Part shown: piece after piece, positions 9,588 through 45,355 of the stretch | Layout of the letters: each line of letters opens with the position of its first letter | Numbering within the stretch: position 1 is the first letter of the stretch | NCBI GenBank assembly: GCA_026415435.1 | Contig: JAOAHC010000020.1 | Coordinates: forward strand, 15,940 to 79,939 | Direction of reading: 5' to 3' | DNA: 64,000 nt | From: Clostridia bacterium | GTDB taxonomy: Bacteria; Bacillota; Clostridia; TANB77; CAG-465 | Notes under the pieces: model-generated | Seen by the model: the letters and a program-made list of their open reading frames with translations, nothing else | What the model was told of the DNA's origin: nothing | Database searches by the model: none | Position numbers and translations under genes: made by a program

Positions 9588-10153
9588 TTATCTAATTAGA
9601 TTTATTGTAATATATCCATTGCCAACGTTAGCTCCGCTAGTACTAGATGTGTTTGCAGCAGATGAGTCAATATAAGATGTGCCCCCAACTCCTCCGTATA
9701 AGCACGCACCACCATTTCCTCCAGTATATCCGCCACCGGCCGCCACCGCCGCCATAGTTACTGCTCCATACATTTAATGCACCGCCGCCACCGGCCGCCG
9801 CCTAAACCACCAGCACCGCCACCAGAAGCTCCTGCTCCTCCAGCAAAACCTAGTGAATAACTTTTTCCACCTACACCTCCTGATAGTGCTGATGCTCCTG
9901 AGCTTAAGTAGCCACCACCGCCGCCGCCACCAGACCCTCCCATACTTTCTGTATAGTTTATAGCAGTTCCTCCACTACCAGTTCCTGATGCTCCGACAGT
10001 TCCATTTCCGCCACCACTAGATACTGAACCACCGCCGCCGCCACCAGCTACTACTAGAAGTTTTCCAGCTGATGTATTATATACATACGAAGCTCCGCCA
10101 CCGGCCTCCACCGCCAGACCCAGAATATGCCGACACATTTCCACCTTGGCCAC
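9588..10153 (-). pseudogene. Frameshifted 3' continuation of the giant surface-protein gene (rest of glycine-rich domain copy 2)
   Basis: Track ORFs 9758..10153 and 9588..9773 align residue-for-residue with copy 1 of the Gly-rich domain encoded at 10341..11078 (e.g. SYVYNT..LLVVAGGGGGGSV.SGGGNGTVGASGTGSGGTAINYT, GYTGGNGGAC.YGG.GGTSYIDSSA.N.SS.SG.N.GNGY). Relative to copy 1 there are +1 nt differences at 10098-10106, 9788-9796 and 9733-9741. Confidence 0.75.
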
Positions 10154-13100
10154 CGATTAATAGGCTTATTGTTTGTCCCTTTGTTAAAGCAAACTCACCT
10201 TGAATGTGTGCTCCATTTCCAGGTGTACTATATCCGCATGTTCCACCACTAGCCCCATCAACGCTAATCCTATATACTCCAGTAGTTGGTACTGTGAAAT
10301 TTTGAGCAATTTCCCTATATACAAATGAACGTGATGCAGATCCTGTGTATGTTATAGATACATACCCATTTCCAGAATTATTTCCACTTATGCTAGACAC
10401 ATTTGTAGCAGATGAATCAATATATGAAGTTCCACCAGATCCACCATATGTGCATGCTCCACCGTTTCCTCCGGTATATCCGCCGCCGCCACCGCCGCCG
10501 CCATAGTTGCTACTCCATACATTCAGCGCACCGCCGCCGCCGCCGCCACCGAATCCTCCAGTACCGCCTCCAGAAGCTCCAGCACCTCCGGTAGAGCCTT
10601 GTGAATAATTTTTTCCGCCTTGACCACCAGATAATGCTGACGAACCTGAACCTACATAACCGCCGCCGCCTCCGCCGCCAGATCCTCCCATACTTCCTGT
10701 ATAGTTTATTGCAGTTCCTCCACTACCAGTTCCTGATGCTCCGACAGTTCCATTTCCGCCACCACTGGCTACTGAACCACCGCCTCCGCCGCCAGCAACT
10801 AAAAGAAGAGTTCCTGTAGTGGTATTATATACATAACTTCCACCTCCTCCTCCGCCGCCGCCAGATCCTGAGTAAGCTGATACATTTCCACCTTGACCAC
10901 CAGCAATAATACTAATGGTTTGTCCCTGAACTAATCCAAATGTTCCTTCCATCAGTGCACCGTTTCCAGGTGAACTATATCCACATGTTCCACCAACAGC
11001 ACCTGCTGCTGTTATAATATACGTTCCAGTAACTGGAACCGTAAATGTTTGGCTACCTGCTGTATAGTTAAAACTACTAACCTCATCTATAACTGAGACT
11101 GTCCTTACAACCTGTGTTGCAGCATTGCCTGCATTATCTGTTACATTATACGTTACAGAATAAGTACCTTTAACATTTGCATTAACATTGCTAACCACTT
11201 GAATATTTGTGGTTATGTTACCATCAATATTATCACTTGCTGTTGCTCCTTCATCCACATAAATGCTACCAACTGTAACTCCTGCTGGATTACTACCTAT
11301 AATTATTATTATAGGTTTGGTATTATCTAAATTAAATATATTACTATTAATTATTGTTGTATTATTAGCTGTATCTTTTGCTAGTATCCATAAATAGTAA
11401 CTACCTGTTACACCTGCTGGGCTTGTTATTAAGCTACCATTTGTAAAGCTTGTCGTAAAACTTGCCTCAGATGGTGCAGTTAAACTTGTTGTCCATTGAT
11501 ATTTTAAACTACTATTATTAATTGAAACATTATCACTCACAGTTACTGTCGTATTCCTACTTTTTGCATATGTTGTATTTCCGTTACTTCCAAATGCAAC
11601 TGTAGGTAGTGCTTTATCTATATTAGTTATTGTTAAACTTGATTGTGTTGCTTGATTTCCTGCTACGTCATTTCCTTTTGCTAGTATTGTACCATTTGCG
11701 CTCATAACAACTGCTGCTGTGTAGTTATTCCATGTTGATCCACCATTAGTACTATATTGTTTTGTTGTTAATTCTGCTGGATATGTTATTGTTACTGTTA
11801 CATTACCATTTGTCCATGCTGTTGTACTTGGACTTAAAGTTATAGTACCAACTGTTTTTGTAGTTATTGTTACCATATTAGATACTGTGCTATTTCCTGC
11901 ATTATCCGTCGCTCTTATTTTACATTGATAAGCAGTTCCACTTGTTAGACCACTAAATGTATATCCCACTGCATTTGTAGCTGCTGTCCACGTTGTTCCA
12001 TTATCTTTTGAGTATTCGTATGCATTTGTTTTTAATGCACTTCCTCCAGTATCACCAGAAGCCTGTACTATCACTGTTAAACTTGATGTAGTTTCTGTTC
12101 CTGTGCTTCCTACTGTCACTGTAGGTGCTGTTTTATCTATATTCGATATTGTTAAGCTTGATTGCGTTGCTTGGTTTCCTGCTACGTCATTTCCTTTTGC
12201 TAGTACTGTTCCGTTTGCTGTCATTGTTATTGCTGCTGTGTAGTTATTCCACGAACTTCCACCATCTATACTATATTGTTTTGTTGTTAGTTCCGCTGGA
12301 TATGTTATTGTTACTGTTACATTTGAATTTGTCCACGCTGCTGTACTTGGTGACAATGTTATATTTCCTACACCTTGTGTACTTATTGCTACTGCTGTTG
12401 ATATTGTACTGTTTCCTGCATTATCTGTTACCCTTACCTTACATTGATATGTTCCACTTGTTAGTCCTGTAAAGTTATATGTTGTAGCAGATGTTGACGC
12501 TGTCCATGTTGTTCCATTATCTTTACTATATTCATATGCACTTGCTTTTAATGCGCTTCCTCCAACATCTGATGCTGTGGCATTTACTGTCACACTTGAT
12601 GTTGTTACTCCTCCACTTACTGCTGTTACTGTTGGAGCTGTTTTATCTATATTTGTTATTGTTAAGCTTGATTGTCCACTTTGATTTCCTGCTACGTCAT
12701 TTCCTCTTGCAAGGACAGTTGTGTTTGAACTAACCAATATATCTCCTGTATATGCTACCCATGTACTTCCACCATTTATACTATATTCTTTTGTACTCAT
12801 ATCTGCTGGATATGTTATTGTTACTGTTATATCTGAATTTGTCCATCCTGTAGGCGAAGATACTATTGTTGGATTTGAAGGTGCTACTTTATCTATATTT
12901 GTAACACTATATGTATATACTGTACTATTTCCTGCATTATCTGTTGCAATAAAATTATATTCTCCATTTTGTGTAGCTATATATGTAGATTGACTTTGCG
13001 TAGTTTTAGTATTATCAGGATTAGTTATTTCTTTTATTCCAGAACTTATAGATGGGAATGTAGACGGAATTATTGCATATTTTAAATCCACATATTCTAT

Positions 13101-31020: not shown

Positions 31021-31698
31021 ATGATAAGAATAGGTATGTGCGATGATGAAATAATTACTATAAAATCTATTGCCAAAATAATTGAATCGAGAATAATAGA
31101 ATATGATTTTGATGCCGAGATTACAACTATAACTGACGATCAAGACAAAATATATGAATTAATAAAAAATAATGCTATAGACGTGCTAATATTAGATATT
31201 GACTTTGGAAATAACAAAAGAAATGGTCTAGAATTTGCCCACGAACTACGAAAAATCAATAAAGATTTTTATCTTGTTTTTTTATCTGCTCATCCGAGAT
31301 ATATGCATGTTTCCTTTGTTAATAAAACTTTTGACTATTTAGTCAAACCAATACATCCTAATGCAATTGCTGAGTTTGTATTTAGATTAAAAGAAGAATT
31401 TCAGCAAAATAAAAAGATGTTTTTACATGTAAACAAATCATTATCGATAAGAACTGATGATATTTTCTATATTGAAAAGCAAGGTAATAAAGCTTTAATA
31501 TATACCAGTACTACAATATACACAATGATAAATAATAGTCTTGATAGATTATTAGATATATTACCTAACAATTTTAGAAAATGCCACAGATCATACATTA
31601 TAAATGAAGAAAAAATACTTAGTATTGATAAAAAAAACGGCAATGTTTGCCTTGGGAAAGATGTATACTGCCCCATAAATATAAAGTATTTGATATAA
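31021..31698 (+). CDS. LytTR-family response regulator (AgrA-like)
   Basis: Receiver domain (IRIGMCDDE...LILDIDF...) plus a LytTR domain (DDIFYIEKQGNKALIYT...CHRSYIIN). Confidence 0.85.
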   Translation: MIRIGMCDDEIITIKSIAKIIESRIIEYDFDAEITTITDDQDKIYELIKNNAIDVLILDIDFGNNKRNGLEFAHELRKINKDFYLVFLSAHPRYMHVSFVNKTFDYLVKPIHPNAIAEFVFRLKEEFQQNKKMFLHVNKSLSIRTDDIFYIEKQGNKALIYTSTTIYTMINNSLDRLLDILPNNFRKCHRSYIINEEKILSIDKKNGNVCLGKDVYCPINIKYLI

Positions 31699-31734
31699 CT
31701 GCTATTTTAGTTAATTATTTTTAGGGGGATTTTT

Positions 31735-33048
31735 ATGTTAAATTTAGTTTTAAATGTTTTCAGTATACTTATCCAAGCATTGGCATGTGGATATTTTATT
31801 GAATCTATTACTCAAATTGGGACTATAAACAAATATGATAAAAATAAAAGATTGATAATTTATTTATCTTTGCTTTTACTGGTTTCTGTTAATAGATTTA
31901 TTGCATTCCCGTATAATACGATAATATCAATAGTATATCAATTTTTCCTTGTTAGCTTTATTTTAAAAGTTAAACCTATAAAATCATTATTCTTTTCAAT
32001 AATATTTTTTGTGGTTTTATCAATACTAGAAATTGTATGTGTATACCTTTTTATGATAATATTTAATCAAAATGGTGAGGAATTATTAAAATTGCCTGTA
32101 TACTACAATTTAGTAATTGTAATGCATAGTGTTTTACTTATGTTTATAACCTATCTGATAAATACTTTTGCAAACAAAAAGGAATTCTTCAAAAACTTTT
32201 TCATTGGAATTAACTTAAAGCAAATTAGATTTTTTCTAATTGTATCATCAATTTGTATAATACCACAAATAATTATATTTGCACTTAATAGATATAATTA
32301 TTCAATACCATTTCTAATACTTAACTCGATACAAATGATAATCTTTTGTTTATTAATATTTACATATATTAAAAGGTCTGCTGAATATGAAAAAACACAA
32401 AACGAATTAACAATATCGGAGTTACATAATAAAACAATGGTTAGCATGGTAGATGGTGTTAGAATACTAAAGCATGACTACAACAATATTATTCAAGCAA
32501 TGAGTGGATATGTTTCAACAAAACAATATGACAAACTTGAAGAACATATATCAAAAGTTTTAAAAGAGTGTAATGCAATAAATACTACATCAACAATAAC
32601 ACCAGAATTATTTAATGAACCTGCCATATATGGAATTGTTGGAGCTAAATATTTTATAGCTATTGAAAAAGAAATAACAGTGGATGTAAGTATAGGAATA
32701 AATATATCAGAGATTAATTTTCCAATGCCTGAGCTTTCTAGAATATTAGGTATATTACTCGATAATGCTATTGAAGCAACATGTAAGGTACCTAGCAAAC
32801 ATATAAAAATTGAGTTTAAATATGATCAAAGAAAAAATGCTGATGTAATCAAAATATATAATACATTTGATACTACAATTAAAATAGATTTAGAAAAAAT
32901 ATTTAATAAAGATTTTTCAACTAAAGAGATAAAGTCTGGAATAGGTTTATGGGAAGCAAAGAAATTGGTAAACAAAACTAAAAATGCTCAAATATATGCA
33001 ACTATTGAAAAAGATAAGTTTGTACAAAATATAATAGTTGAGAGATAG
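31735..33048 (+). CDS. AgrC-like GHKL sensor histidine kinase (6-7 TM sensor plus HATPase_c_5)
   Basis: Polytopic N-terminal half. H-box-like KHDYNN, N-box LLDNAIEA, and G-box SGIGLWEAK. Confidence 0.85.
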   Translation: MLNLVLNVFSILIQALACGYFIESITQIGTINKYDKNKRLIIYLSLLLLVSVNRFIAFPYNTIISIVYQFFLVSFILKVKPIKSLFFSIIFFVVLSILEIVCVYLFMIIFNQNGEELLKLPVYYNLVIVMHSVLLMFITYLINTFANKKEFFKNFFIGINLKQIRFFLIVSSICIIPQIIIFALNRYNYSIPFLILNSIQMIIFCLLIFTYIKRSAEYEKTQNELTISELHNKTMVSMVDGVRILKHDYNNIIQAMSGYVSTKQYDKLEEHISKVLKECNAINTTSTITPELFNEPAIYGIVGAKYFIAIEKEITVDVSIGINISEINFPMPELSRILGILLDNAIEATCKVPSKHIKIEFKYDQRKNADVIKIYNTFDTTIKIDLEKIFNKDFSTKEIKSGIGLWEAKKLVNKTKNAQIYATIEKDKFVQNIIVER

Positions 33049-33073
33049 TTGATTTAGAATAAATATAGAAATT

Positions 33074-33102
33074 AAAATGAGGTGTTTTTGACACCTCATT
33101 TT
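33074..33102. terminator. Bidirectional terminator shared by the convergent agrC-like and agrD genes
   Basis: AAAATGAGGTGT-TTTTG-ACACCTCATTTT lies between the stops at 33048 (+) and 33153 (-). Confidence 0.7.
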
Positions 33103-33152
33103 AGATTAATTTCAATTTATCAAAAATCAACTATTTTTTAATTAAAATAGGG

Positions 33153-33266
33153 CTATTTTTTTATCAAGCATCTTGGTGCTTTTGGTTGATGGAATAACAA
33201 TACGACGCAACTGTTAGTTGATGATCTTGCATATGATTCTACTATTTTTTTCAATAATTTTTTCAT
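33153..33266 (-). CDS. agrD: AgrD-type autoinducing-peptide precursor (37 aa)
   Basis: Too short for the ORF track. SD AAAGGGGGG lies 6 nt before the ATG. Translation: MKKLLKKIVESYARSSTNSCVVLLFHQPKAPRCLIKK. It has an amphipathic leader, a Cys followed by hydrophobic residues, then the HQP..P motif seen in clostridial AgrD. It is downstream of agrB on the same strand. Confidence 0.75.
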   Translation of the reverse strand: MKKLLKKIVESYARSSTNSCVVLLFHQPKAPRCLIKK

Positions 33267-33486
33267 ATAATTCCCCCCTTTTTATATGATATATATCTTC
33301 TAAATTTTTGTTTAATATAACTGTCTAAATATTACTTATACTATTTTGGTAAATATTTAACATTAAAATTATATTTCAAACTATTTCATGAACTTTAAAT
33401 AACATTATAATAACATGTAATTTAGAAGATTATATTTTTTATATATAAGAACAATTCCTAGGTTAATCATCCTTATTATAACTTTG

Positions 33487-34125
33487 TTAATTGCCTATAA
33501 GATCTTTAAATTCGTCTGATTCATAACTGTACTTACACCTTAAAAATCTATACACAGGCTTAGTAGTCATTATATTTATAAATAATAAAACATAAATTAT
33601 CATTTCTTTATATTCCATATTTTTTACAAATAAAATAAACACTAAATATATTAAGTTTATTGATATGAAAGCAAATATTTTTAGTTTCTTTCTTTGTTCT
33701 TTATTAATAATAGGTATTTCTTCAGTATCAGCAGGTGCTATTTTATAAATAACATATACCGATAATATATAATTTAAGATATATAGTATAACTAGTACAA
33801 TATTACTTATATAAGTTACTTTAGCAAGTAATATAGATCCTATCAGATATAGCGTTGAATATATGAAACATTCTATATTTGTTCTTGCATGTGCTCCTCC
33901 AACAAATGTTTTATATACTAAATTAATGAGAAACACCACACCAAGTTGAGGCAATATATTTAAAAAATATGCTATTATTATTATTGCTGTAAATTTAGGT
34001 ATATCTTCTACTATTCTCTTTACTCCAAATAAAAGAATTTCTCTTTTTTCTTCAGATACTTCTTCATCTTTTATAAGTACATTATCCAAAAAATAATTAC
34101 TTATTTTTTCAACCATATCTATCAC
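33487..34125 (-). CDS. agrB: AgrB-family accessory gene regulator (AIP-processing membrane peptidase)
   Basis: 212-aa polytopic protein. ...FGVKRIVEDIPKF...TFVGGAHART matches the AgrB pattern (G.H in the conserved region), and it is adjacent to agrD. Confidence 0.8.
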   Translation of the reverse strand: MIDMVEKISNYFLDNVLIKDEEVSEEKREILLFGVKRIVEDIPKFTAIIIIAYFLNILPQLGVVFLINLVYKTFVGGAHARTNIECFIYSTLYLIGSILLAKVTYISNIVLVILYILNYILSVYVIYKIAPADTEEIPIINKEQRKKLKIFAFISINLIYLVFILFVKNMEYKEMIIYVLLFINIMTTKPVYRFLRCKYSYESDEFKDLIGN

Positions 34126-34411: not shown

Positions 34412-34611
34412 ATGGAAAAAAACAATAATTATATGCAAACTGATAATAACTTAATACAAATATCAGATGGTGGCATTGTAGGAAAACCTATTGGAATTGG
34501 TGATAACGCACCTAAATTTAGTGCTCAAACTACATTCGGTATGATAAATTTAGATGATTACAGAGGAAAGTGGCTTATATTTTTCTCACATCCAGGTGGT
34601 TTTACACCTGT
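34412..34611 (+). pseudogene. 1-Cys (Prx6-type) peroxiredoxin, 5' fragment interrupted by an integrated element
   Basis: ...GDNAPKFSAQTTFGMINLDDYRGKWLIFFSHPGGFTPV, after which the frame reads into element DNA (GTLLLNLLVKSTVYPH*). The canonical continuation CTTEF is found at 40896 onward. Confidence 0.85.
34603..34611. repeat. attL core TACACCTGT (shared 9-mer at the element boundary)
   Basis: An identical 9-mer occurs at 40886..40894. Both lie in the prx reading frame (..ACA CCT GT.). Confidence 0.75.
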
Positions 34612-34635
34612 AGGAACGCTGCTGTTGAATTTATT

Positions 34636-34689
34636 AGTAAAAAGTACAGTTTATCCTCATTAATTTGAGTTTAAACTGTACTTTTTACT
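34636..34689 (-). terminator. Terminator closing the element's cargo operon (bidirectional hairpin)
   Basis: AGTAAAAAGTACAGTTTA ... TAAACTGTACTTTTTACT (18-bp arms), 16 nt downstream of the stop at 34705. Confidence 0.7.
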
Positions 34690-34704: not shown

Positions 34705-35175
34705 TTATATTCTGGTAACCTCTATTATAGTAATTTTGCAACCATTGAAATCAACAGTTTCATTAACTTTTTTACCAATAAGTACTTGCGGAATAGGTGC
34801 GTCACAAGATAATATATTGTTATCAATATCACCTTCTCCACTTCCAAGAATATCATATTCTACAATATCACCTTCAAAATTAATTTTTATTCTAGAACCC
34901 ATTATAACAGTTTCACCATCAAAATTGATATATTCAGGCATTTCTTCGATCACAATGCAATTATTGTATTTTTCCCATAGATCTTGCTTTTTCTTAGGTA
35001 ATTCGTACATCGATTTCACTCTTAATGCCATAAAATCAGGATTTTCTCTTAAATCATTATCCATCTTTACGCTTTCACCCATTTTTAAATTTGTTTTTGT
35101 TATCTCTTCATCAATATTTAAATATTCTTTATGTAGCTTTTCCTTACCATTTCTTGTTATATAATATTTCTTCAT
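34705..35175 (-). CDS. GreA/GreB-family transcript-cleavage factor paralogue (element-borne)
   Basis: YYITRNGKEKLHKEYLNI..., a coiled-coil tip motif D41-L-R-E44-N (GreA has D41/E44), and a C-terminal domain VIMGSRIKINFEGDIVEYDILGSGEGD...ILSCDAPIPQVLIGKKVNETV. Confidence 0.75.
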   Translation of the reverse strand: MKKYYITRNGKEKLHKEYLNIDEEITKTNLKMGESVKMDNDLRENPDFMALRVKSMYELPKKKQDLWEKYNNCIVIEEMPEYINFDGETVIMGSRIKINFEGDIVEYDILGSGEGDIDNNILSCDAPIPQVLIGKKVNETVDFNGCKITIIEVTRI

Positions 35176-35642
35176 ATTCCCTCCTTCTGTATATTACAAC
35201 TATTTTGCTCCTCCCTTAATATTGTTCTTGCCTTAACAAGTATTTTACCATAATTATTTTGACCTGTTTTATTAGGTCCACATCCCCAATATTCCTCTTT
35301 AACCGTATCCTCCACTATCTCCTCTTCTCCTGTATCTAATAATTTTTCTAGTATATTTGGATTAGCTCTGAATTTTAGCAAGACCCCTTCAAGCATTATT
35401 TCTTGTTTTACTTTATCCCAGTCTTCTCTTATTTTATTATTTCTATCTCTGCCAATATTAGAAGCTTCTTTAGGTGTTTCTGCATCAAGTATTTCTTGCT
35501 TAATTTCGCATTCGATAACTTTGCTATATTGATAAAAATGTTCATTTGTCTTAAAAAATATATCTTCCTTATAGAAACCATGAGATGAGTATGTAGCTAG
35601 ATATCCAAGTGGTCCAAACTCTTTATAAAAATGTATTGCCAT
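35172..35642 (-). CDS. NADAR (YbiA/DUF1768) family protein
   Basis: IHFYKEFGPLGYL...FKTNEHFYQYSK...EDWDKVKQEIMLEGVLLKFRANPNILEKLLDTGEEEIVE....EYWGCG.N.TGQNNYGKILVKAR matches the NADAR signature. Confidence 0.8.
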   Translation of the reverse strand: MAIHFYKEFGPLGYLATYSSHGFYKEDIFFKTNEHFYQYSKVIECEIKQEILDAETPKEASNIGRDRNNKIREDWDKVKQEIMLEGVLLKFRANPNILEKLLDTGEEEIVEDTVKEEYWGCGPNKTGQNNYGKILVKARTILREEQNSCNIQKEGI

Positions 35643-35644
35643 AG

Positions 35645-37306
35645 CTATTTTCTCCTTTGCCCTGGTATTAAATAGTCATATTTTAAATTTTCTGTATCAA
35701 GAGTCTCATTACCCTTACTCAAATTTATCTTTTTTCTGAACTCAACTTGCCCATTTTCAGCTGAAGTAGCTGAAAGATTAAGTTTTTCTATTACAATACT
35801 GTCCTCATAATCACAACTTAATCTCCATGCGTATCCTTCCATAGTCATTGTACTGTTATGTGACCCATAATTTCTTTCATGGTTTGGAGTTAATGGCTCA
35901 TTTTCCTTATATGTCAGTCCCTCAAACTCCTTTAGCGCCCTGCCAAGATTACATATTATACCTGTATCGATCGTAAAATCAGGATCAAAAAACAAACTTG
36001 CTGAATAACCTGATTCTTGCAAAGCATCCACATAAGAATCTATCATTGGCAATAATTCTAAATTAATATAGTTTGATTTTTCCTCATTATTTACTTTTAA
36101 ATAATTATCTGCATGCTTCCTGCACAATTCTAATACATTATACACATCTTCCCAAGTTGCTGAATCAAATTTATCTAAACTCCCAATTTTAAATAATCTT
36201 TTATATTCAAAAATTGCATTAAGGAAGAATCTCTCCGTTATTATATACCCTGGTCTTTCCCTTTGACTAGTTTTAGGATATACATTTATTCCATAATTCC
36301 CGTTTTCTGTAAGTCTTGGTCCTATTGAATAATATATTCCATCAGAATTGCAGAGCATATAAACTTCTGATAATTTGTATTTTGAAAGCCCCTTGAGTAT
36401 AAATTTATGAGCTATTCTTTGTACTTCCTCTTTATTTCTAGGACTTTCGTATAGACTTATCTCATAAAAATATATCGGTGTTTCTGTTAATTTTATTAAA
36501 TGATCATATGGATCAGCTATCTTTGATATATAAATATTAACACTTTTGTTTTTTGATATATACATATGATTATTAGCACATATAACTGTATGTTCTAGTA
36601 CATTAATATCATAAACTTCACAATTTTTTACTAAAGGTTTATATCTAAGTTCAACACACATCTGTCTACTACCACTACCATATCTATCATAATATGGCCT
36701 GTATAGTGATAAAAAATTAGCAATGTCTTTTGAATAATCATGTCTACTATATTGTGCGCTACCATCATTACACCAACCTTTTGCATAAGGAGTAAATGAT
36801 AATCTAACCCCTGCAAGAGTATCAATTAGAGTATTATTGATTTTTTTGTGCATATCATTTAATTCTTTATTATATCGACTGTATCCAACAGTTGAAATTC
36901 GTGTTTTTACTCCTAACTCATTATATACCAATGCTAAAAATTTATCAAGATAAAAGTAGTTTCCAATATCATTGTCAAGGTATGAAAATATAACACCATT
37001 TCTATGTTCATTTCTATCCCAAACAATAAGAGGAAATTCGAAGTTTCTTTTCAAAGTCTCATACTTTATGGCTGCAATTACATTTCTTTGTCTCTTTTCA
37101 GTCCAATATTCTGTCTTTGTACCAGCCAATTTACTGCATATCTTGCATGAATTTAAACATCCGATTTGTGGTTGAAAGTGCCTTACTTTTGAAAAAAAGC
37201 TATCCGGCAAACTTTCAAGCTCTGCCGCTATTTTCCGCCTCTCATTGTAATCTTCCTCACTTATACCTTGTTCTTCATCTGACAATAAATATTCAAAATA
37301 TAACAT
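35645..37306 (-). CDS. 553-aa protein with an N-terminal CX3CX2C motif (divergent radical-SAM-like) and a ~300-aa C-terminal region of unknown function
   Basis: QIGC50LNSC54KIC57S, followed by segments with radical-SAM-like strand patterns (GVIFSYLDND, TRISTVGYS, GVRLSFTPY). The canonical GGE motif is absent and nothing is recognised in the C-terminal half. Confidence 0.45.
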   Translation of the reverse strand: MLYFEYLLSDEEQGISEEDYNERRKIAAELESLPDSFFSKVRHFQPQIGCLNSCKICSKLAGTKTEYWTEKRQRNVIAAIKYETLKRNFEFPLIVWDRNEHRNGVIFSYLDNDIGNYFYLDKFLALVYNELGVKTRISTVGYSRYNKELNDMHKKINNTLIDTLAGVRLSFTPYAKGWCNDGSAQYSRHDYSKDIANFLSLYRPYYDRYGSGSRQMCVELRYKPLVKNCEVYDINVLEHTVICANNHMYISKNKSVNIYISKIADPYDHLIKLTETPIYFYEISLYESPRNKEEVQRIAHKFILKGLSKYKLSEVYMLCNSDGIYYSIGPRLTENGNYGINVYPKTSQRERPGYIITERFFLNAIFEYKRLFKIGSLDKFDSATWEDVYNVLELCRKHADNYLKVNNEEKSNYINLELLPMIDSYVDALQESGYSASLFFDPDFTIDTGIICNLGRALKEFEGLTYKENEPLTPNHERNYGSHNSTMTMEGYAWRLSCDYEDSIVIEKLNLSATSAENGQVEFRKKINLSKGNETLDTENLKYDYLIPGQRRK

Positions 37307-37310
37307 GATG

Positions 37311-37877
37311 CTACCCCCCTGATAAATTAAAGTATAATTCTCTTATATTTTCATCAATATCCGTTTCATTATTATTAAAATAAATAACATTTTCTAATAA
37401 AGCACCAAACTCTTGTAAAAATTTGTTTTTAGTATCAGTATCATCTAATACCTTATCCAATATTGATTTACCTCTTTCGGTGATTCTAGATTGTCTTAAT
37501 TCCTCCTCCACAGATACAAAAATTGTAAGATCCGGTTTTAAAATTTCATGCCCCATTATATTGTAATCTAAATTTACATTTAGTCCCGCGACTCTGTGTG
37601 AAACAACAGTATCTATTAAATACCTTACACAATATACATTATTATTTTTATAATCAAAATTATTTTTTATATAATCTGACATGTATACCACTGAAGACAA
37701 ATAATATAAATAATGGGCCATTTGCGAACATTTTCTAACATCTTTATCGATTAAATCCCGACTAGAATATTCTAAACTAGGTGTTTTTACTAATATTGAG
37801 TTTTCATCCATTTTGTGTAACTTCTCTGCTATTGTACTTGTTCCCGATCCATCCAATCCTGTTATAACAGTAAGCAT
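37311..37877 (-). CDS. Thymidylate/dNMP-kinase-like P-loop protein with a non-canonical Walker A (GLDGSGTST)
   Basis: MLTVITGLDGSGTSTIAEKL..., PDLTIFVSVEEELRQSRITERG (a Tmk-like strand plus lid Arg). Start set at the ATG at 37877, preceded by AAAGGAGGAGA (the track lists an upstream start at 37931). Confidence 0.6.
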   Translation of the reverse strand: MLTVITGLDGSGTSTIAEKLHKMDENSILVKTPSLEYSSRDLIDKDVRKCSQMAHYLYYLSSVVYMSDYIKNNFDYKNNNVYCVRYLIDTVVSHRVAGLNVNLDYNIMGHEILKPDLTIFVSVEEELRQSRITERGKSILDKVLDDTDTKNKFLQEFGALLENVIYFNNNETDIDENIRELYFNLSGG

Positions 37878-37990
37878 ACAGCTCTCCTCCTTTTTAAATT
37901 TAAATAAGATAATCAACAACATGATGTACATTATATACTGATTTCTTTGCGATATTTGTCGAATTATAAATTTGTGTGTAAAATAATAAC

Positions 37991-39574
37991 TTAAGAATTA
38001 ATTATTTTGTCAATATTTATCCTAAGATGAACCTCTATACTTTTATCCTTATAAACATATATTTTATCTACTAATAAAATTAACAAATATCTGTCTATTT
38101 CTCCTCTATCTATTATGCTATTTAATATATCTAATACTGTTTTTTTTGAATCATTTGCTACTTTAACATTGTTTTTCTTAATGTTTAGTATGTTATTTTC
38201 TATATTAATTAAATTTTGTTTTTTATTCATTTCTAACTCTTCATATACATTTTCAATTAATTGTTTTTCTTGTATTAATTTTTGCTTTGATAAATCTTTT
38301 ATTTTTTGATTAATTAAAATTTTAAGTTCATTCTTTAAAAGATTTTTTCTTTTAATTAAATCTAATATATATTTGTCTTCATTATTTGTTTTTTCATCAA
38401 TTATTAAAATATTACTTAAAATATCAATATAATGTTGTTTAAAAACTTTAATAAATTCAACTAATTGTATTTTTATATAGTTTTCATGTATTTCTCCGCA
38501 AGAACATCTTGAAGATCCATATTTTATATAGTTAATACATGAATACCCTACTATTTTTATATTTTTAGCTCTTTTTATTTTTCTCCCTGACATACAAGAT
38601 CCACATTCCCCACATCGTATTAATCCACTAAATAAATATTCTGTTTTATTCTTATTATCATTATATATTTTTTTATTTTTACTATCTCTTAACTTTTTAG
38701 CTAACAAAAAATCATCTATAGATATAATTTGTTCATGGTGATTTTCAAATCTATAATTTTGCTCTTTTGGAAGTAGCTTTGAACGTCCTCTTATTGATTG
38801 AACTGCTTTTTTATGAGTAATTAAAGTACCAGTATATATTTCATTATCTATTATTTGTTTTATCATATATGTACACCATGTTGGTTGTATTTTATGTTTA
38901 TATATTTTTCCTTCTTGTTCAAATTTTTGGCTATAATATAAAGATGGAGTCGGATAACCTTTTTCATTTAACATTTTACAAATTTGAACGTATCCAAATC
39001 CTTCCTTAATGTACAATTCAAATATGTACTTTATTATATGTTTTACTTCATCATCAACAATAAGTTTAGTTTTATCTTTTGGATCCTTAATATATCCAAA
39101 ATATTTTCCCATTATGAGCCTACCAGATTTTTGTCTACTATGCATACTTGATTTGACTTTACGTGATATGTCCTTTACATACTTTTCATTGTACCAAGTA
39201 GTTATACCTATAGTATCATTTTGATCTGCTTGAAGATTGTATATTCCACCCGAATCATGTAAAACTATTAGATTTTTCCCACTTTCTTTTAAATCATCTA
39301 GAAATACTAGAGTTCTGCCGTTATTTCTTCCTACTCTTGACATGTCCTTAACAACAATTGTATCTACTAATCCAGTTTCAATATCTTCTAACATTTCATT
39401 CCATGCCGGTCTATCAAACTTATACCCTGAAACATTGTCATCAATGTAAAATTTTCTTACATTTAAATTCTGAGAATTAGCATATTCTAATATCATATTT
39501 TTTTGCTCTTCTATGCTAGAAAAATTATCTAAATTATCATCTCTGCTTAATCTACAATAACCTACCAAATTCAT
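37991..39574 (-). CDS. Large serine recombinase (resolvase domain, recombinase domain, zinc ribbon, coiled coil)
   Basis: MNLVGYCRLSRDD (catalytic Ser), DDNVSGYKFDRPAW, VVKDMSRVGRN, Zn ribbon CGECGSCM...YSCINY...SRCSC, and a Lys/Glu-rich coiled coil. Confidence 0.9.
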   Translation of the reverse strand: MNLVGYCRLSRDDNLDNFSSIEEQKNMILEYANSQNLNVRKFYIDDNVSGYKFDRPAWNEMLEDIETGLVDTIVVKDMSRVGRNNGRTLVFLDDLKESGKNLIVLHDSGGIYNLQADQNDTIGITTWYNEKYVKDISRKVKSSMHSRQKSGRLIMGKYFGYIKDPKDKTKLIVDDEVKHIIKYIFELYIKEGFGYVQICKMLNEKGYPTPSLYYSQKFEQEGKIYKHKIQPTWCTYMIKQIIDNEIYTGTLITHKKAVQSIRGRSKLLPKEQNYRFENHHEQIISIDDFLLAKKLRDSKNKKIYNDNKNKTEYLFSGLIRCGECGSCMSGRKIKRAKNIKIVGYSCINYIKYGSSRCSCGEIHENYIKIQLVEFIKVFKQHYIDILSNILIIDEKTNNEDKYILDLIKRKNLLKNELKILINQKIKDLSKQKLIQEKQLIENVYEELEMNKKQNLINIENNILNIKKNNVKVANDSKKTVLDILNSIIDRGEIDRYLLILLVDKIYVYKDKSIEVHLRINIDKIINS

Positions 39575-39774
39575 TTAATATTAATCTCTCTTTCTAATAA
39601 GGTGGTCATATTCTTTTTAGCATCTTCCCTACCACTTATAAATAAGGTTATTTTTCCATATTTTAGTTTAATTTTTTCCACATTTTCCACTATTTTAAAG
39701 TTTTTTAACTCATCACTAATTAAAAAAACTTGCACTAATTTATCTTTATTATGTTTAAAAACTTTAACTTTCAT
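39571..39774 (-). CDS. Hypothetical 67-aa protein translationally coupled to the recombinase (possible directionality factor)
   Basis: AGGTGA RBS. Its stop overlaps the recombinase ATG (ATGA). No motif recognised. Confidence 0.45.
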   Translation of the reverse strand: MKVKVFKHNKDKLVQVFLISDELKNFKIVENVEKIKLKYGKITLFISGREDAKKNMTTLLEREINIK

Positions 39775-39884
39775 AAGTTAAATCACCTAATAAATAACTA
39801 TGATATAATTAAGTTTTTATACATGTTTAAGGAACCCAATATATATTCACTCTACAGATATATGAAATGGGATATAACCGTATA

Positions 39885-39927
39885 AAAAAGATTATATTAT
39901 AAATAATTTTTAATATAATCTTTTTTT
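39885..39927 (-). terminator. Terminator between the 275-aa gene and the recombinase operon
   Basis: AAAAAAGATTATATTA ... TAATATAATCTTTTTT, flanked by A/T runs. Confidence 0.6.
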
Positions 39928-39968
39928 CTTTTTATTTGCATATAAAGAAATTAATCAAAATTTAAGTA

Positions 39969-40796
39969 CTAAAATAAATTTACAATAAATTTTACAACAA
40001 CATCTCCTATAATTCCCCAAAATAAAATACCCATGAACGGTAATATAATAAATTTCACCCACCATTTATTGGTAAACATTTCTAGAAATCCATATGGGGT
40101 AAATCCGTATAAATCTTTCCAATTGGAATTTGTTTTTAAAGTATTCTCGTGTGCCCTTTCAATTATATTTGCAATACAATCTACTTTTCTCAAAGTAGAC
40201 CTATGTAACTTAATATATTCGTGATTTTCAAAAGCATCCGCTTCCTCCTGCCCATTAAGAAAATCTTTATTACTTATATTATTTTTCTTTATTAGACTTT
40301 CAAATCTAGGATGGTTTATATAGTTCACACCATATTTTGCTATTAGAATACGTGCTAAATCTATTTTATTTTCATCTTCAAGTGTATATATTTCATAATC
40401 TATCCTTTTACCTCTATTTAAAACTCTATATCTGAATAGTATTGCATCAAATCCATAATGTACATCTCTCATGTTCAAATGTATCCATATATACTTTCTA
40501 TTCTTTTTTAAAAATTCTAAGAATTCTTGTAACATTTCTCTTTCAAGTTCATCATAGTGATTTATTATTTCCTCAAGTTTTATTCCTTTCAATTCAGCCT
40601 GCATGTGTATTGAAAAAGATTTTGTTTGACCAGTTTTCAAAAAACGCACAGCTATACATGTTATTCTTGAAGATTTACTACCCATATCTTTATAGAAGCT
40701 CTCACATGAATAGTGAATTATCAAATACTTATCCTCATTTTGAAATATCTCCTCTAAAACTTTAATTGTATTCTTATGTTTTTTTAATCTCTTCAT
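39969..40796 (-). CDS. Hypothetical 275-aa protein with a C-terminal TM anchor (element-borne)
   Basis: C-terminal WWVKFIILPFMGILFWGIIGDVVVKFIVNLF. The N-terminal domain has faint DnaQ-like spacing (IIHYSCESF ... WIHLNMRDVHYGFDAI), not enough for a call. Confidence 0.45.
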   Translation of the reverse strand: MKRLKKHKNTIKVLEEIFQNEDKYLIIHYSCESFYKDMGSKSSRITCIAVRFLKTGQTKSFSIHMQAELKGIKLEEIINHYDELEREMLQEFLEFLKKNRKYIWIHLNMRDVHYGFDAILFRYRVLNRGKRIDYEIYTLEDENKIDLARILIAKYGVNYINHPRFESLIKKNNISNKDFLNGQEEADAFENHEYIKLHRSTLRKVDCIANIIERAHENTLKTNSNWKDLYGFTPYGFLEMFTNKWWVKFIILPFMGILFWGIIGDVVVKFIVNLF

Positions 40797-40885: not shown

Positions 40886-40894
40886 TACACCTGT
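40886..40894. repeat. attR core TACACCTGT
   Basis: Identical to 34603..34611 and followed by TTGCACTACTGAATTT (C-T-T-E-F). Confidence 0.75.
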
Positions 40895-41492
40895 TTGCAC
40901 TACTGAATTTATTTCTTTTGCTAAATATTATCCTGAATTTATGAGAAGAAATACATATTTACTAGGTCTATCTGTAGATAGCATACCTTCAAATCTTGCT
41001 TGGGTATACAATATATACAGAAATACTGGTATTCAAATACCTTTCCCTATAATTTCGGATAGAGATATGAAAGTTTCTAAAGCATTTTCAATGATTTCAG
41101 ATAACTCTGATAATTTTCACAATATAAGAAATGTATATATAATTGATCCTAATCAAAAAATTAGAGCTATATTGCAGTACCCCCCAACAACTGGAAGAAA
41201 TATAGCAGAAATTTTGAGAATTTTAGAGGCTTTACAATTAACTGATCAAGATAATGTAGCTACACCTGCAAACTGGTTACCAGGGCAACCTGTAATTTTA
41301 CCTTATCCTCAAACATACGACGAATTAATTGAAAGAGCTAAAAATCCTGCAGGATATAACTGTGTTGATTGGTATTTATGTTTTAAACAAGAACTCCCAA
41401 CTCAAAAAAACATGGTAAATATACCAAACTTTCCGCAAGTAGAATGTACAAATGCATATTCTTTTAATCAACCTGTTAATATGATGGTATAA
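40887..41492 (+). pseudogene. 1-Cys peroxiredoxin, 3' fragment (from ..TPVCTTEF onward)
   Basis: The frame is open from ACA CCT GTT TGC ACT ACT GAA: TPVCTTEFISFAKYYPEFMRRNTYLLGLSVDS...AWVYNI...IPFPIISDRDMKV...RNVYIIDPNQKIRAIL.YP.TTGRNI.EILRIL.ALQ...ATPANW.PG. It is in frame with the 5' fragment once 34612..40894 is removed. Confidence 0.85.
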
Positions 41493-41777: not shown

Positions 41778-44700
41778 TTATTCAAATAGATTCATGATAT
41801 CCTCTTTAGATAATTTATTAATAAATGTTTCTTCTGTGCTTAACATATTTTCTGTAAGTTTAGACTTTTTCTCTTGAAGTTCATTTATTTTTTCTTCAAT
41901 GGAATCTTTTGTTATTAATTTATATACTTGCACATTATTTTTTTGACCGATTCTGTAAGCTCTATCTGTAGCTTGATTTTCAGCAGATAAATTCCACCAT
42001 GGGTCATAATGAATAACCACATCAGCTCCAGTAAGATTTAGCCCAGTTCCACCAGCTTTAAGAGAAATCAAAAATACATCTATATTTTCATTTGTATTAA
42101 AGTCGTTTACTAGCTGCATCCTCTCCTGCACTTTCGTACTTCCAGTAAGCTTATAATAATTTATTTTTTCCTTTTTGAACTCTTTTTCTAGTATTTCAAA
42201 CATTGAAGTAAACTGTGAAAATAACAAGACTTTATGACCGCTTTCTGTTGCATCTTTTACTATTTCAATACATTGATTTAATTTGCTACTCTTTCCATTA
42301 TAATTATCAATAAATAGAGATGGATGACAGCATATTTGTCTAAGCCTAGTAAGTATAGCAAGTATTTTAATTTGACTCTTTTCAAACCCATTACTATTTA
42401 TTTCATCTTGCAGATCCTGTTTTGCCTTCATAAGATGTGAAAAATATATTCTTTTTTGTTCATCATCCATTTCATTATTTAATATAGTTATTGTTTTATC
42501 TGGCAATTCAGTTAAAACTTCTTTTTTCAATCTTCTTAATATAAATGGTTGTATCAGGGTCTTTAATCTGTCTAATTTTTCACCATCTTCTTCCTTTACT
42601 ATTGGCATTTCATAATTTGATTTGAACTTTGAATAGTTGAAAAGATATCGTGGCATAACATAATCAAAGATTGACCATAACTCTGAAAGAGAGTTTTCTA
42701 TCGGTGTACCTGTTAAAGCAAATCTTGTTTGAGCGTTTATACTTTTTAGTGCTATAGCATTTTGAGTACTACTATTTTTTATATATTGGGCTTCATCAGC
42801 AATTATATATTTAAATATATAATTTTTTTCTTTATATATGTCAATATCTCTTTTTAGTAAATCATATGAAGTCACAATTAAATCATACTTATCAATTAAA
42901 TCTATTTTTTGCTTTCTTTCCTCTAATTTTCCATTTATAACTAACGTGGATATATTTGAGCTAAACTTTTTAATTTCGTTTTCCCAATTAAGAGTAAGTG
43001 AGCTTGGACATACAACTATACTAGTCTTTTTATCTTCTTTTGAATTATTAACATAATCTGATATAATTGCAATAATTTGAAGTGTTTTTCCAAGTCCCAT
43101 ATCATCTGCAAGTATGCCTCCAAAATTATATTCATCTATTATTTTTAACCATTTATATCCTATTTTCTGATAATTTCTTAAAACATTTTCAAACTCAGTT
43201 GGTAAGATTATTTTTTCATCAAATTCTCTATCAAGAGTCTTATTTATAATATTTTTATAATTATAATTTCTTGTTATTTGAGTATTCTTAATATTATCCA
43301 ACAACTTTTCTAAATATATGCTTCTATATATAGGAACATTTATTTCTCCAGATGATAATTCTTTGTAATCTAAATCCATACCATCAACTAGATTATCTAT
43401 GAAAGCTATGTCAGAATTTTCTTCAAGTTTTAAGAAACTTCCATCCTTTAACCTATGATATTTTTTCTTTATATTATACTTTTTTAGTATATCTTTTAAT
43501 TCTGATCTATCAAAATCAAAGCCACTAAGTTCAATATTTAATAAGTTGTTTTCAATTTTTACACCTATATTACCAAGCTTTGCCTGTCTAATTTGCTTTG
43601 ACTTAAATTCATCTGAAACCATAACTTGATATTTATTTGTATACTCATTTACCCCTGAATTTAAAAAATCATATATTTTATCATCATCTTTTAAAACAAG
43701 TATGTTCTTTTGTTTATCTTGTTCAAATCCAGTCTTACTAAATGTCACATACGCTCTTTTTTCTTGAACTATATTTCTTACTATTGTTAACTCCTCAGAT
43801 TTTTCATATGGATTAAACTCTATTTCTCCATAACAAAATTTTATATTTGCTTCTATATTATGTTTTGAGTTATAATCTAAATATATTTTTACAAATAAAT
43901 CTTGAGGTATATATTTTTCAATTTCTGTATTCTTAAATTCATCTAAATTAATGTTATTTTTTATTTTTGGAACCACTAAAGAAAATAGTGATGAAAGATC
44001 ATCTTTTCTAAATGTTATTTCATTAGTTTGATTCTGACTGTATATGTCTAATATTTTTATAGTATTTTTTGAAAAACCTTCACTACATCTGTATAAATTA
44101 TTATCAACGAATAGATATGCATGGTAATCTGTTTTATACATCTCATACTTAATAGGAGTTTCATTAATTAAACCGTATTCTGTTTCATTTAATTTCTTTA
44201 TATTAAATTTTATCTCGGGTTCCCCGTCTAAAAATGTGTAGTCTTGAGTATAGTGGTATCTTTCAATTTTAACATTACTATTTACTAAAATATTAAATAA
44301 TTCATCAAAAGATATTGAATCTAACTTTATACTTGAAACTCCAAGAACTTTTTGTTGAGATCCATAATAATTATATCTGACAGTTGTATTATCATTAGCA
44401 TATTTAATAATTTTAGAATATTTTAATATAAATCTCACTAATTCTTGAGATGATTCATCAAAACTACCCATATTATGAATAAATTCTAGCTTTGATCCAT
44501 ACTTATATACTTTATTTTTTTCAACATTGTCCATAAATTCAACTAGATCTTTTATTTTATATTGTTGCTTTAATCCTACGCTAAATTCAACTTTTACTTT
44601 ATCCTCAAATCTATCAAAAATTAATTGAGGTACTACTTTTACGTTACCATTTTTAATTTCAGTATATTCATTTATTATATCTACGTTATCTTCTGAATCT

Positions 44701-45128
44701 ATATCATTAAACAAATTTAGAATTCTCAAGCTATCTTGATATTTTCTTTCCATATATATCTTGTTTAAGTCTTCGCTTGAAGTATTATTACTATTTTTTT
44801 GTGGTATTAACATGCGTTTTGCATACTCTTTATTTTCATTAAATTCTATTATAGTTGCTACTATATGTTTACAATAATAGTAATTTGTATCATAATATGG
44901 GCATGCACATTTAAAGTCTTCTATTTTGCCTTCTTCTACTAATACCAAAATATTATATGATGAGGTACTGCCCTTTACTCTAGAATATAGCTTAAAATTT
45001 AAATCATCTTTATATTCTATTTTATATATATTGACTCTTCCTTGATTAACATATGTACGTGCTCTTGATAATAAAGATAGATCCATATTATCTTCTAAAA
45101 ATTTAATTATACTATCATTAACTAACAT
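41778..45128 (-). CDS. SNF2-family helicase with an N-terminal SWIM zinc finger (YwqA/RapA-like)
   Basis: SWIM motif CACPYYDTNYYYCKHIV. SNF2 motifs LADDMGLGKT, DEAQYIKN, LTGTPIEN and QATDRAYRIGQ. I prefer the ATG at 45128 (AAGGTGG RBS) to the track's TTG at 45212. Confidence 0.85.
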   Translation of the reverse strand: MLVNDSIIKFLEDNMDLSLLSRARTYVNQGRVNIYKIEYKDDLNFKLYSRVKGSTSSYNILVLVEEGKIEDFKCACPYYDTNYYYCKHIVATIIEFNENKEYAKRMLIPQKNSNNTSSEDLNKIYMERKYQDSLRILNLFNDIDSEDNVDIINEYTEIKNGNVKVVPQLIFDRFEDKVKVEFSVGLKQQYKIKDLVEFMDNVEKNKVYKYGSKLEFIHNMGSFDESSQELVRFILKYSKIIKYANDNTTVRYNYYGSQQKVLGVSSIKLDSISFDELFNILVNSNVKIERYHYTQDYTFLDGEPEIKFNIKKLNETEYGLINETPIKYEMYKTDYHAYLFVDNNLYRCSEGFSKNTIKILDIYSQNQTNEITFRKDDLSSLFSLVVPKIKNNINLDEFKNTEIEKYIPQDLFVKIYLDYNSKHNIEANIKFCYGEIEFNPYEKSEELTIVRNIVQEKRAYVTFSKTGFEQDKQKNILVLKDDDKIYDFLNSGVNEYTNKYQVMVSDEFKSKQIRQAKLGNIGVKIENNLLNIELSGFDFDRSELKDILKKYNIKKKYHRLKDGSFLKLEENSDIAFIDNLVDGMDLDYKELSSGEINVPIYRSIYLEKLLDNIKNTQITRNYNYKNIINKTLDREFDEKIILPTEFENVLRNYQKIGYKWLKIIDEYNFGGILADDMGLGKTLQIIAIISDYVNNSKEDKKTSIVVCPSSLTLNWENEIKKFSSNISTLVINGKLEERKQKIDLIDKYDLIVTSYDLLKRDIDIYKEKNYIFKYIIADEAQYIKNSSTQNAIALKSINAQTRFALTGTPIENSLSELWSIFDYVMPRYLFNYSKFKSNYEMPIVKEEDGEKLDRLKTLIQPFILRRLKKEVLTELPDKTITILNNEMDDEQKRIYFSHLMKAKQDLQDEINSNGFEKSQIKILAILTRLRQICCHPSLFIDNYNGKSSKLNQCIEIVKDATESGHKVLLFSQFTSMFEILEKEFKKEKINYYKLTGSTKVQERMQLVNDFNTNENIDVFLISLKAGGTGLNLTGADVVIHYDPWWNLSAENQATDRAYRIGQKNNVQVYKLITKDSIEEKINELQEKKSKLTENMLSTEETFINKLSKEDIMNLFE

Positions 45129-45355
45129 ATTCGCCACCTTAAAAAACATATTACAATATAATTGGCAACACATTTTAATTTTAATTATATCATTTTTCTT
45201 TGAATATTTCAATTAAAATTTTCATTTTTTTATTATTTAGTAAATAATTGACAAAAGGTATTTTTATATACAAAATATACTTTATTTTTAAAATGTAATT
45301 TTTTAATATATTATTTTATTAGTAATTGATGTAAAATATTTGTGAAGTGAATTTC

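Follow-up and report, generated by a model that had tools for sequence, protein, structure and literature searches.

A divergent radical-SAM-like protein family linked to NADAR, Gre, and kinase-fold partners, represented on a small integrative element of a Clostridia bacterium

What does a bacterial protein do when it has several hundred relatives, carries a conserved cysteine motif, and goes unrecognized by the profile libraries? The question is raised by a 553-residue protein, here called the target, encoded in a 64,000-nucleotide stretch of DNA from a Clostridia bacterium (GTDB lineage Bacteria; Bacillota; Clostridia; TANB77; CAG-465; GenBank assembly GCA_026415435.1, contig JAOAHC010000020.1, positions 15,940 to 79,939 of the forward strand). 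This whole stretch is referred to as the window, and feature coordinates within it are collected in Table 1. The target gene lies in an operon with genes for a thymidylate (dTMP)-kinase-fold (TMK-fold) protein, a NADAR-domain protein, and a GreA-like transcript-cleavage factor. A preliminary description, made from the letters of the DNA alone, had seen in the target an N terminus resembling radical S-adenosylmethionine (SAM) enzymes. We find that the target carries a conserved Fe-S-type cysteine triad on a radical-SAM-like core and that it is linked, genetically and by fusion, with a nucleotide-derivative hydrolase, which is NADAR or, in a distant branch of the family, NUDIX. We put the chances at about even that the target is the core enzyme, and a new radical-SAM subfamily, in an undescribed nucleotide-centered and probably antiviral system.

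Cysteine triad and fold of the target

Residues 47 to 58 of the target read QIGCLNSCKICS and hold the motif C50-x3-C54-x2-C57. With 11 cysteines among 553 residues (about 2%), CX3CX2C would be expected by chance about 0.004 times per protein, as calculated. The preliminary description had singled out this motif, and comparison with relatives bore it out. The three cysteines, along with about 85 further positions, are invariant in 36 close homologues of 50 to 62% identity, and those positions span the whole length of the protein, its C-terminal half included. The triad also occurs in 66 of 67 divergent full-length relatives (22 to 62% identity), mostly in the form C-x-N-x-C-x-F-C, with an aromatic residue preceding the third cysteine. 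Some relatives contain just three or four cysteines in total, and no cysteines other than the triad are conserved as a set family-wide. An auxiliary Fe-S cluster was considered and rejected: its candidate ligands, C217, C452, and C498, are invariant among the close homologues only, and the wider family does not keep them, which leaves nothing to indicate such a cluster.

The family is modest and coherent. A search of 5.8 billion proteins returned 429 homologues, nearly all of 540 to 560 residues, lacking a Pfam domain and an informative name. When 1.84 billion cluster representatives were searched exhaustively with a profile, only 211 clusters at 50% identity emerged. At 90% identity, the family amounts to about 430 sequence clusters, mostly from gut Firmicutes. 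Its taxonomic spread is patchy, taking in Clostridia, Bacilli, Veillonella, Muribaculaceae, Saccharibacteria, and Pasteurellaceae (Lonepinella). In a plasmid collection, the sole match was a shortened remnant in two Streptomyces plasmids.

An AlphaFold2 model of the full-length target had a predicted local distance difference test (pLDDT) score of 93.4 and a predicted template modeling (pTM) score of 0.90. Its N-terminal part is predicted to be a partial barrel (Table 1), in which the cysteine loop, by DSSP, directly follows strand beta1. The pLDDT score falls to 67 at this loop, as expected for a cluster loop modeled without its cluster. The segments GVIFSYLDNDIG, TRISTVGYS, and GVRLSFTPY, which the preliminary description had placed at the spacings of radical-SAM strands beta2 to beta4 while noting atypical residues, coincide with the predicted strands 105 to 107, 134 to 139, and 164 to 171. 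These segments are strongly conserved, and Y109, D111, D113, G141, R168, and S170 are nearly invariant family-wide. The same description had reported the canonical GGE motif to be missing, which is correct; the beta2 segment reads (F/Y)LDNDIG instead, with Y109, D111, and D113 conserved in the position of GGE.

A Foldseek search of the full model against PDB and BFVD gave nothing at an E value below 0.001. The best PDB neighbors were biotin synthase (8vdw), the viperin-like structures 9dfw and 9dgw, and AprD4 (6fd2), and the best BFVD matches were mostly annotated as radical-SAM proteins or Fe-S oxidoreductases (phage radical-SAM proteins), with a top probability of 1.00. These radical-SAM neighbors are weak, with E values of 0.01 to 0.3, alignments of about 190 to 200 N-terminal columns, and template modeling (TM) scores on the target of 0.27 to 0.48.

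At the sequence level, Pfam, NCBIfam, PADLOC (5,027 models), and PHROGs gave no match to the target at E values up to 1, and a PDB sequence search with the single target or with the profile of its close homologues (A1) found no match. A wide profile (A2) picked up the designed "Cake" and "Scone" propellers in the PDB, and these were discarded because repeats had inflated the matches to a single short DGxYYAI hairpin, each stretch by itself having an E value above 100. A profile of the N-terminal part only (A4) gave insignificant PDB matches, among them the cluster loop of RlmN at an E value of about 1. The preliminary description had proposed the radical-SAM profile PF04055 as a check on its reading, and the outcome was divided. 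The target has no match, even at E values up to 10. Among the 67 divergent relatives, 9 match PF04055 individually and weakly, with E values between 1e-4 (the best) and 0.01; two that were examined cover profile positions 2 to 98 at 15 to 18 bits against a cutoff of 29.5. True fusions aside, PF04055 is the only Pfam family that recurs in these relatives.

Taken together, the conserved triad, the beta/alpha N-terminal half, the radical-SAM fold neighbors, and the weak PF04055 matches support the suggestion, made in the preliminary description, of a new radical-SAM subfamily. Several results weigh against it. Neither by sequence nor by structure does the target itself significantly match the radical-SAM superfamily, every link to the superfamily falls below threshold in both the Foldseek and the PF04055 comparisons, the 36 close homologues give nothing beyond noise with Pfam, and no PF04055 match, up to an E value of 10, and GGE is absent. 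A protein that performs chemistry other than SAM radical chemistry on a TIM-like scaffold, with the triad binding zinc or an Fe-S cluster of structural or redox function, would accord with the missing GGE motif and PF04055 match, with Foldseek E values that all exceed 0.01, and with an hhalign probability against viperin of 2 to 3%. We nevertheless regard such a protein as very unlikely, since CX3CX2C with an aromatic residue before its third cysteine, placed directly after beta1, is the defining radical-SAM signature and the only conserved cysteine set here; moreover, PF04055 is the only recurrent weak Pfam match among the relatives, and radical-SAM enzymes are the top fold neighbors in two independent libraries. 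That the target is a SAM radical enzyme is, in our estimate, likely. It would cleave SAM at a single [4Fe-4S] cluster held by C50, C54, and C57 on the loop after beta1 of the partial beta/alpha barrel.

The rest of the target, residues 223 to 553, is specific to the family. Modeled alone, this region has a pLDDT score of 90.7, and Foldseek finds no fold match for it in the PDB (best E value, 0.67; TM score, about 0.1). The earlier statement that residues ~260 to 553 contain no recognizable motif therefore holds, there being no profile, PDB sequence, or fold match. Within the family, the region is well marked: N320, G323, Y325, R349, R359, and N453 are conserved throughout, as are the motifs FTxDTGxIxNxGR and TPxxER. 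Strand 445 to 450 (FTIDTG) is present in the full-length model and not in the model of residues 223 to 553. To judge from the models, this strand probably rejoins the N-terminal sheet or barrel, in which case residues 223 to 440 would be a barrel insertion. The family-specific insertion and extension presumably form the substrate pocket.

Genes linked to the target

On the minus strand of the window, from 34705 to 40796, the gene order is a 275-residue protein, a 67-residue open reading frame (ORF), a recombinase, the TMK-fold protein, the target, the NADAR protein, and the GreA-like protein. The last four genes, which make up the cassette, overlap or are separated by gaps of at most 4 bp, forming a tight operon. 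A GGGGGG Shine-Dalgarno sequence upstream of the target lies within the 3' end of the preceding gene.

The linkage extends well beyond the window. In 61 full-length target loci from species-representative genomes, NADAR is found in 59, lying no more than 150 bp downstream of the target in 56 and fused to it in 3. A TMK-fold gene adjoins the target in 34 loci, a GreA-like factor is present in 29, and a long NADAR fusion without GreA is found in 23. The target occurs naturally fused to a thymidylate-kinase-fold protein (P0076), to NADAR (P0080 and others), and to NADAR plus GreA (P0099), and in other genomes the GreA-like factor is fused to NADAR alone. Although the accessory genes are exchanged from one locus to another, two layouts predominate. 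Type A, found mostly in Clostridia and including the window copy, consists of the TMK-fold protein, target, NADAR, and GreA, often followed by a protein of about 200 residues. Type B consists of a LysR regulator, the target, and a NADAR-DHH fusion, has neither a Gre nor a kinase-fold gene, and comes mostly from Bacilli, Mollicutes-like, and Erysipelotrichaceae genomes (three examples are given in Table 1, and about 20 further loci share the layout). Between 24 and 32 loci, of type B, carry the LysR regulator; in about half of the loci it immediately precedes the target in the same orientation.

The ~200-residue protein that follows the GreA-like gene is a divergent CYTH (triphosphate-tunnel) domain, found in 26 loci and absent from the window element. 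Pfam mostly misses it; its profile matches PDB entry 1yem at an E value of 1e-4, and 9 of 17 members match PF01928. A class I/II aminotransferase is encoded in 5 loci. A distant branch at about 30% identity, which includes the Streptomyces plasmid remnant, has an adjacent or fused NUDIX protein instead of NADAR. One cassette (L074) has a dCMP/cytidine deaminase gene at 8806 to 9198, just upstream of the kinase-fold gene. Two loci without a kinase-fold gene, L073 (12608 to 14995) and L075 (12607 to 15012), encode a protein of about 800 residues directly after the GreA-like factor, with nSTAND3 and pentapeptide repeats in the former and no Pfam match in the latter; it could be an additional component or belong to a neighboring system.

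The window GreA-like protein scores 62 bits against the NCBIfam housekeeping GreA equivalog, whose cutoff is 139. An acidic tip, DNDLRENP(D/E)(F/Y), is kept in 35 of 36 Gre partners, the exception being a poorly aligned one. This tip aligns with the catalytic acidic tip (DxxE) of Escherichia coli GreA. In all 36 TMK-fold partners, the Walker A lysine is replaced by threonine, giving TGLDGSGT(S/T)(S/T), and VRY stands in place of DR(Y/H); to judge by these residues, the partners may not be ordinary kinases. The window TMK-fold protein matches the PADLOC models PDC-M51B (4e-23) and VakA (5e-14), and the window NADAR protein matches the candidate model PDC-M42C (4e-16). Neither PDC-M51 nor PDC-M42 was found as a full system: only the partners match, and of the 5,027 PADLOC models, not one fits the target. 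A search of the accessible literature turned up no source for the names VakA, PDC-M51, and DS-32.

The accessory proteins all handle nucleotides or triphosphates (TMK-fold, CYTH, DHH, aminotransferase) or RNA polymerase (Gre). Could the target act on nucleic acids rather than on small nucleotides? It would then modify RNA or DNA in the manner of RlmN or Cfr, NADAR would strip off a ribosyl-type adduct, and Gre would deal with stalled RNA polymerase. The cysteine loop, QxGCxNxCxFCS, is akin to that of RlmN, the only radical-SAM sequence match, albeit an insignificant one, in the PDB, and the C-terminal region has many conserved arginine, lysine, and aromatic residues. Reversal of base ADP-ribosylation in nucleic acids is a known activity of NADAR proteins (PMC12945103). 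Against this, the RlmN match has an E value of about 1, and the cassettes yielded no domain for ADP-ribosyl transfer or for nucleic acid binding; in particular, the Pfam-annotated neighborhoods of the cassettes contain no ADP-ribosyltransferase domain beside NADAR. The CYTH, NUDIX, TMK-fold, and DHH accessories indicate small nucleotides and not polymers. We consider action on nucleic acids unlikely, and a nucleotide substrate for the target enzyme fairly likely.

A cassette acting on small nucleotides might also make a secreted antibiotic or toxin of the nucleoside type, with Gre conferring self-resistance on the RNA polymerase of the producer. The enzyme set, comprising a radical enzyme, an aminotransferase, a NUDIX protein or phosphoesterase, and a kinase-fold protein, recalls the logic of nucleoside antibiotics such as the puromycin-type 3'-amino nucleosides, and the conserved acidic tip of Gre would be in keeping with it. 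However, the recurring genes of the cassettes, which are very small (2 to 5 genes), include none for a transporter or exporter, and the aminotransferase is missing from most copies, making a secreted product highly improbable.

The integrative element and the case for an antiviral role

The window cassette sits inside a peroxiredoxin gene. The two halves of that gene (AhpC-TSA and 1-cysPrx_C) flank the element, the split falling exactly in the region of the catalytic cysteine codon. Joining the halves at the 8-bp ACACCTGT cores restores an intact, in-frame 263-residue peroxiredoxin with the active site FTPVCTTEF, which identifies the four-gene cassette as cargo carried by an integrative element of 6,283 bp. 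An automatically proposed junction, TGAATTTATT, was rejected because it is out of frame; the ACACCTGT core keeps the reading frame. The host is without this peroxiredoxin unless the element excises. The operon is the sole non-mobility cargo of this serine-recombinase element, which fits an accessory function of the defense type.

Mobile-element and defense genes also lie near other loci. An insertion sequence (IS) element adjoins one locus (L001), and serine recombinases lie near four others. Defense genes near the cassettes include BREX with dynamin-like GTPases, nSTAND3 with YobI ATPases, and TIR/SEFIR, Lit-like Peptidase_U49, and Schlafen-like proteins. In addition, the partners match the candidate-defense models of PADLOC named above.

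A metabolic role has to be weighed against this. In such a role, the cassette would be a LysR-regulated metabolic, salvage, or damage-control pathway in which the target and NADAR, with or without DHH, process a nucleotide or cofactor intermediate of the cell itself, such as a ribosylamine of the riboflavin or pterin type. The cassette would then have no part in immunity, and its proximity to mobile and defense genes would be incidental. The LysR gene directly upstream of the target in about half of the loci speaks for such a pathway, as does the aminotransferase in 5 loci. One type B cassette (L072) lies among genes for a penicillin-binding protein (PBP), MurG, FtsW, and acetate kinase, and LysR in type B, together with the housekeeping neighbors of at least one such locus, suggests regulated metabolism. 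The window NADAR protein scores 108 bits with TIGR02464 (riboflavin biosynthesis intermediates N-glycosidase), above its cutoff of 73.7. On the other side, the family has a patchy distribution that suggests horizontal transfer, and the genes flanking it show little conserved order; in the window, an integrative element carries the cassette as its only cargo; several copies lie in defense islands; and metabolism offers no ready reason for a dedicated Gre factor. A purely metabolic pathway strikes us as rather unlikely.

The LysR, L072, and TIGR02464 results thus count against an antiviral system, and further results do so as well. The target matches no validated defense system, and no homologue of it was found in IMG/VR or phage collections. 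The loss of the Walker A lysine from the TMK-fold partners is at odds with a viperin-like supply model. It is also awkward for this model that an enzyme of biosynthesis should be fused to a hydrolase able to destroy what it makes, unless the two, the enzyme and NADAR, act one after the other. For the type A cassette, we judge an antiviral role to be an evenly balanced proposition.

How might such an antiviral cassette work? The target enzyme would modify a nucleotide or nucleotide-like substrate by radical chemistry, with a logic akin to that of viperin and its kinase, and NADAR or NUDIX would act on the substrate or the product of this reaction. The product, or its NADAR-processed form, might then disturb the nucleic acid synthesis of an invader. 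At the secondary channel of the host RNA polymerase, the cassette Gre factor might excise a terminating residue or deliver the effect. In its most specific form, the proposal is one of a new class of chemical antiviral immunity, in which a radical-SAM enzyme of novel architecture and NADAR make a nucleotide-derived poison of RNA synthesis and the Gre factor of the cassette, through transcript cleavage, selectively proofreads or rescues the multisubunit RNA polymerase of the host. We hold this version to be unlikely; if true, no immunity system before it would have carried its own factor for protecting RNA polymerase, and the C-terminal 330 residues of the enzyme would represent a new fold for substrate binding.

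Table 1. Positions of the target, its partners, and the element (window positions, unless a locus of another genome is named)
Feature	Position	Strand	Remarks
Target gene, divergent radical-SAM-like protein, 553 aa	35645..37306	-	ATG start; stop codon included
Target residues ~41-222, predicted alternating beta/alpha partial-barrel core, beta1-beta5	36641..37186	-	DSSP on model; Foldseek neighbors
Codons of C50-x3-C54-x2-C57, putative [4Fe-4S] cluster-binding loop	37136..37159	-	Invariant among close homologues
Target residues 223-553, family-specific region	35648..36640	-	Predicted beta-rich module, two long helices, C-terminal beta module
NADAR-domain protein (N-glycosidase family)	35172..35642	-	PF08719, 1.5e-30
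GreA-like transcript-cleavage factor	34705..35175	-	PF01272, 1.3e-12; 4-bp overlap with NADAR gene
dTMP-kinase-fold protein	37311..37931	-	PF02223, 1.8e-12; atypical P-loop GLDGSGTST
Large serine recombinase	37991..39574	-	Resolvase, Recombinase, and Zn_ribbon_recom domains
67-aa ORF, part of element	39571..39774	-	Overlaps recombinase start; no family matches (Pfam, PHROGs)
275-aa element protein, phage-related family	39969..40796	-	phrog_8766, E = 1.3e-76
Left ACACCTGT core, attL side, in split peroxiredoxin gene	34604..34611	.	Junction restores ORF
Right ACACCTGT core, attR side	40887..40894	.	Junction restores ORF; element of 6,283 bp
Peroxiredoxin halves	34412-34663 and 40887-41492		Flank the element
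CYTH protein examples	L001 9695-10297; L069 1361-1963; L003 11046-11636
NUDIX-linked distant loci	L077 3647-4144; L078 187-1295; L076 7594-8133
Type B examples	L038 7627-8940; L045 7639-8931; L072 11647-12945

Within the element, the last ~35 residues of the phrog_8766 protein appear hydrophobic by eye, and in other loci this protein is not found beside the cassette. Immediately to the left of the split peroxiredoxin gene, at 31021 to 34125, lies what we take, by eye, to be an agr-like quorum-sensing set: presumably a LytTR-type response regulator (31021 to 31698), a membrane histidine kinase (31735 to 33048), and an AgrB-like membrane protein (33487 to 34125, minus strand). To the right of the peroxiredoxin gene, an ORF of 1,144 residues (41778 to 45212) resembles, by eye, a SWIM-zinc-finger SNF2-family helicase. 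Elsewhere in the window, positions 10077 to 15590 have a G+C content of 36 to 42%, against about 27% for the window. rRNA was considered for the GC-rich stretch at 10 to 14 kb and dropped, as there is no Rfam match and the stretch is occupied by a large repeat-rich protein gene instead. The 1,837-residue product of this gene resembles a surface protein, with several near-identical repeats of about 175 residues and a glycine-rich C-terminal part.

Comparison with known systems

Relative to canonical radical-SAM enzymes (PF04055; biotin synthase, AprD4, RlmN), the target shares the CX3CX2C motif after beta1 and the alternating beta/alpha core; these enzymes are its top Foldseek neighbors, and its relatives give sub-threshold PF04055 matches. 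It differs in falling below every curated threshold, in having YLDND in place of GGE at beta2, in its large insertion and extension, and in its lack of conserved auxiliary-cluster cysteines. The partners can be compared in the same way. The cassette NADAR is a bona fide NADAR domain, like those of the YbiA-type and DarT-associated antitoxin hydrolases, but it has no linked ADP-ribosyltransferase or riboflavin-enzyme fusion and is instead coupled or fused to the target, GreA, or DHH. The cassette Gre protein has the Gre C-terminal domain and the conserved acidic tip DxxE of GreA and GreB; in contrast to them, it is a dedicated accessory copy or fusion, far below the cutoffs for housekeeping GreA.

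The closest functional analogy to the cassette is viperin or pVip with its kinase, even though membership by sequence failed. Viperins make 3'-deoxy-3',4'-didehydronucleoside triphosphates (ddhNTPs), which act as chain terminators. In both systems, a radical-SAM-type enzyme is linked to a nucleoside monophosphate (NMP)-kinase-fold gene, and both are found in defense islands and on mobile elements. The viperin-like structures 9dfw and 9dgw are among the best fold neighbors of the target (TM scores on the target of 0.35 to 0.38), and the kinase-fold partner matches PADLOC models VakA and PDC-M51B. The differences are substantial. The target has 553 residues against about 300 to 360 in viperins, with an extra 330-residue region of no known fold, and it lacks GGE. 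There is no sequence relation past the cysteine loop: the N-terminal family profile gave hhalign probabilities of 2.2% against human viperin and 2.9% against a vertebrate viperin profile, in the cysteine loop only, the viperin profile being of low diversity, with only vertebrate viperins among the matches listed. The cassette has an obligate partner, either NADAR or NUDIX, as well as a Gre factor, both absent from viperin systems, and its kinase-fold partner has lost the Walker A lysine. The preliminary description had argued from size that the protein is not simply a pVip, and the hhalign result and the absence of a PADLOC match agree with this.

A conceptual parallel is offered by Ophion, a system of Gammaproteobacteria that consists of a radical-SAM protein (OpnA), a PHP phosphoesterase (OpnB), and a phosphoribosyltransferase (OpnC), and for which nucleic acid interference has been proposed (bioRxiv 10.1101/2025.09.30.679545). 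In both cases, a radical-SAM enzyme is joined with a phosphoesterase and an enzyme acting on N-glycosidic bonds. The components differ, with PHP and phosphoribosyltransferase there versus NADAR, DHH, Gre, TMK-fold, and CYTH proteins here, and no PHP or phosphoribosyltransferase (PRTase) domains occur in the window or related cassettes. The Ophion authors describe a radical-SAM domain, whereas the target has no Pfam match; the two are set apart here by description only.

The searchable literature contained no paper describing a radical-SAM enzyme coupled to NADAR, Gre, CYTH, or DHH. What appears to be new, as far as sequences and models can tell, is a radical-SAM subfamily that carries a new domain and stands at the center of an undescribed cassette. 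If confirmed, this would be a branch of the radical-SAM superfamily unseen by current profile libraries, and its large domain without a PDB fold match would imply new substrate recognition and possibly new radical chemistry. The 6.3-kb integrative element provides a natural and portable unit for heterologous testing. From the obligate linkage to NADAR or NUDIX, and from the accessory Gre, CYTH, DHH, and TMK-fold proteins, the last without the Walker A lysine, we suspect an uncharacterized nucleotide-derived metabolite tied to transcription. Two ideas thereby become testable: that bacteria may make nucleotide effectors directed at RNA polymerase besides ddhNTPs, and that Gre-type factors may be recruited as components of immunity or delivery.

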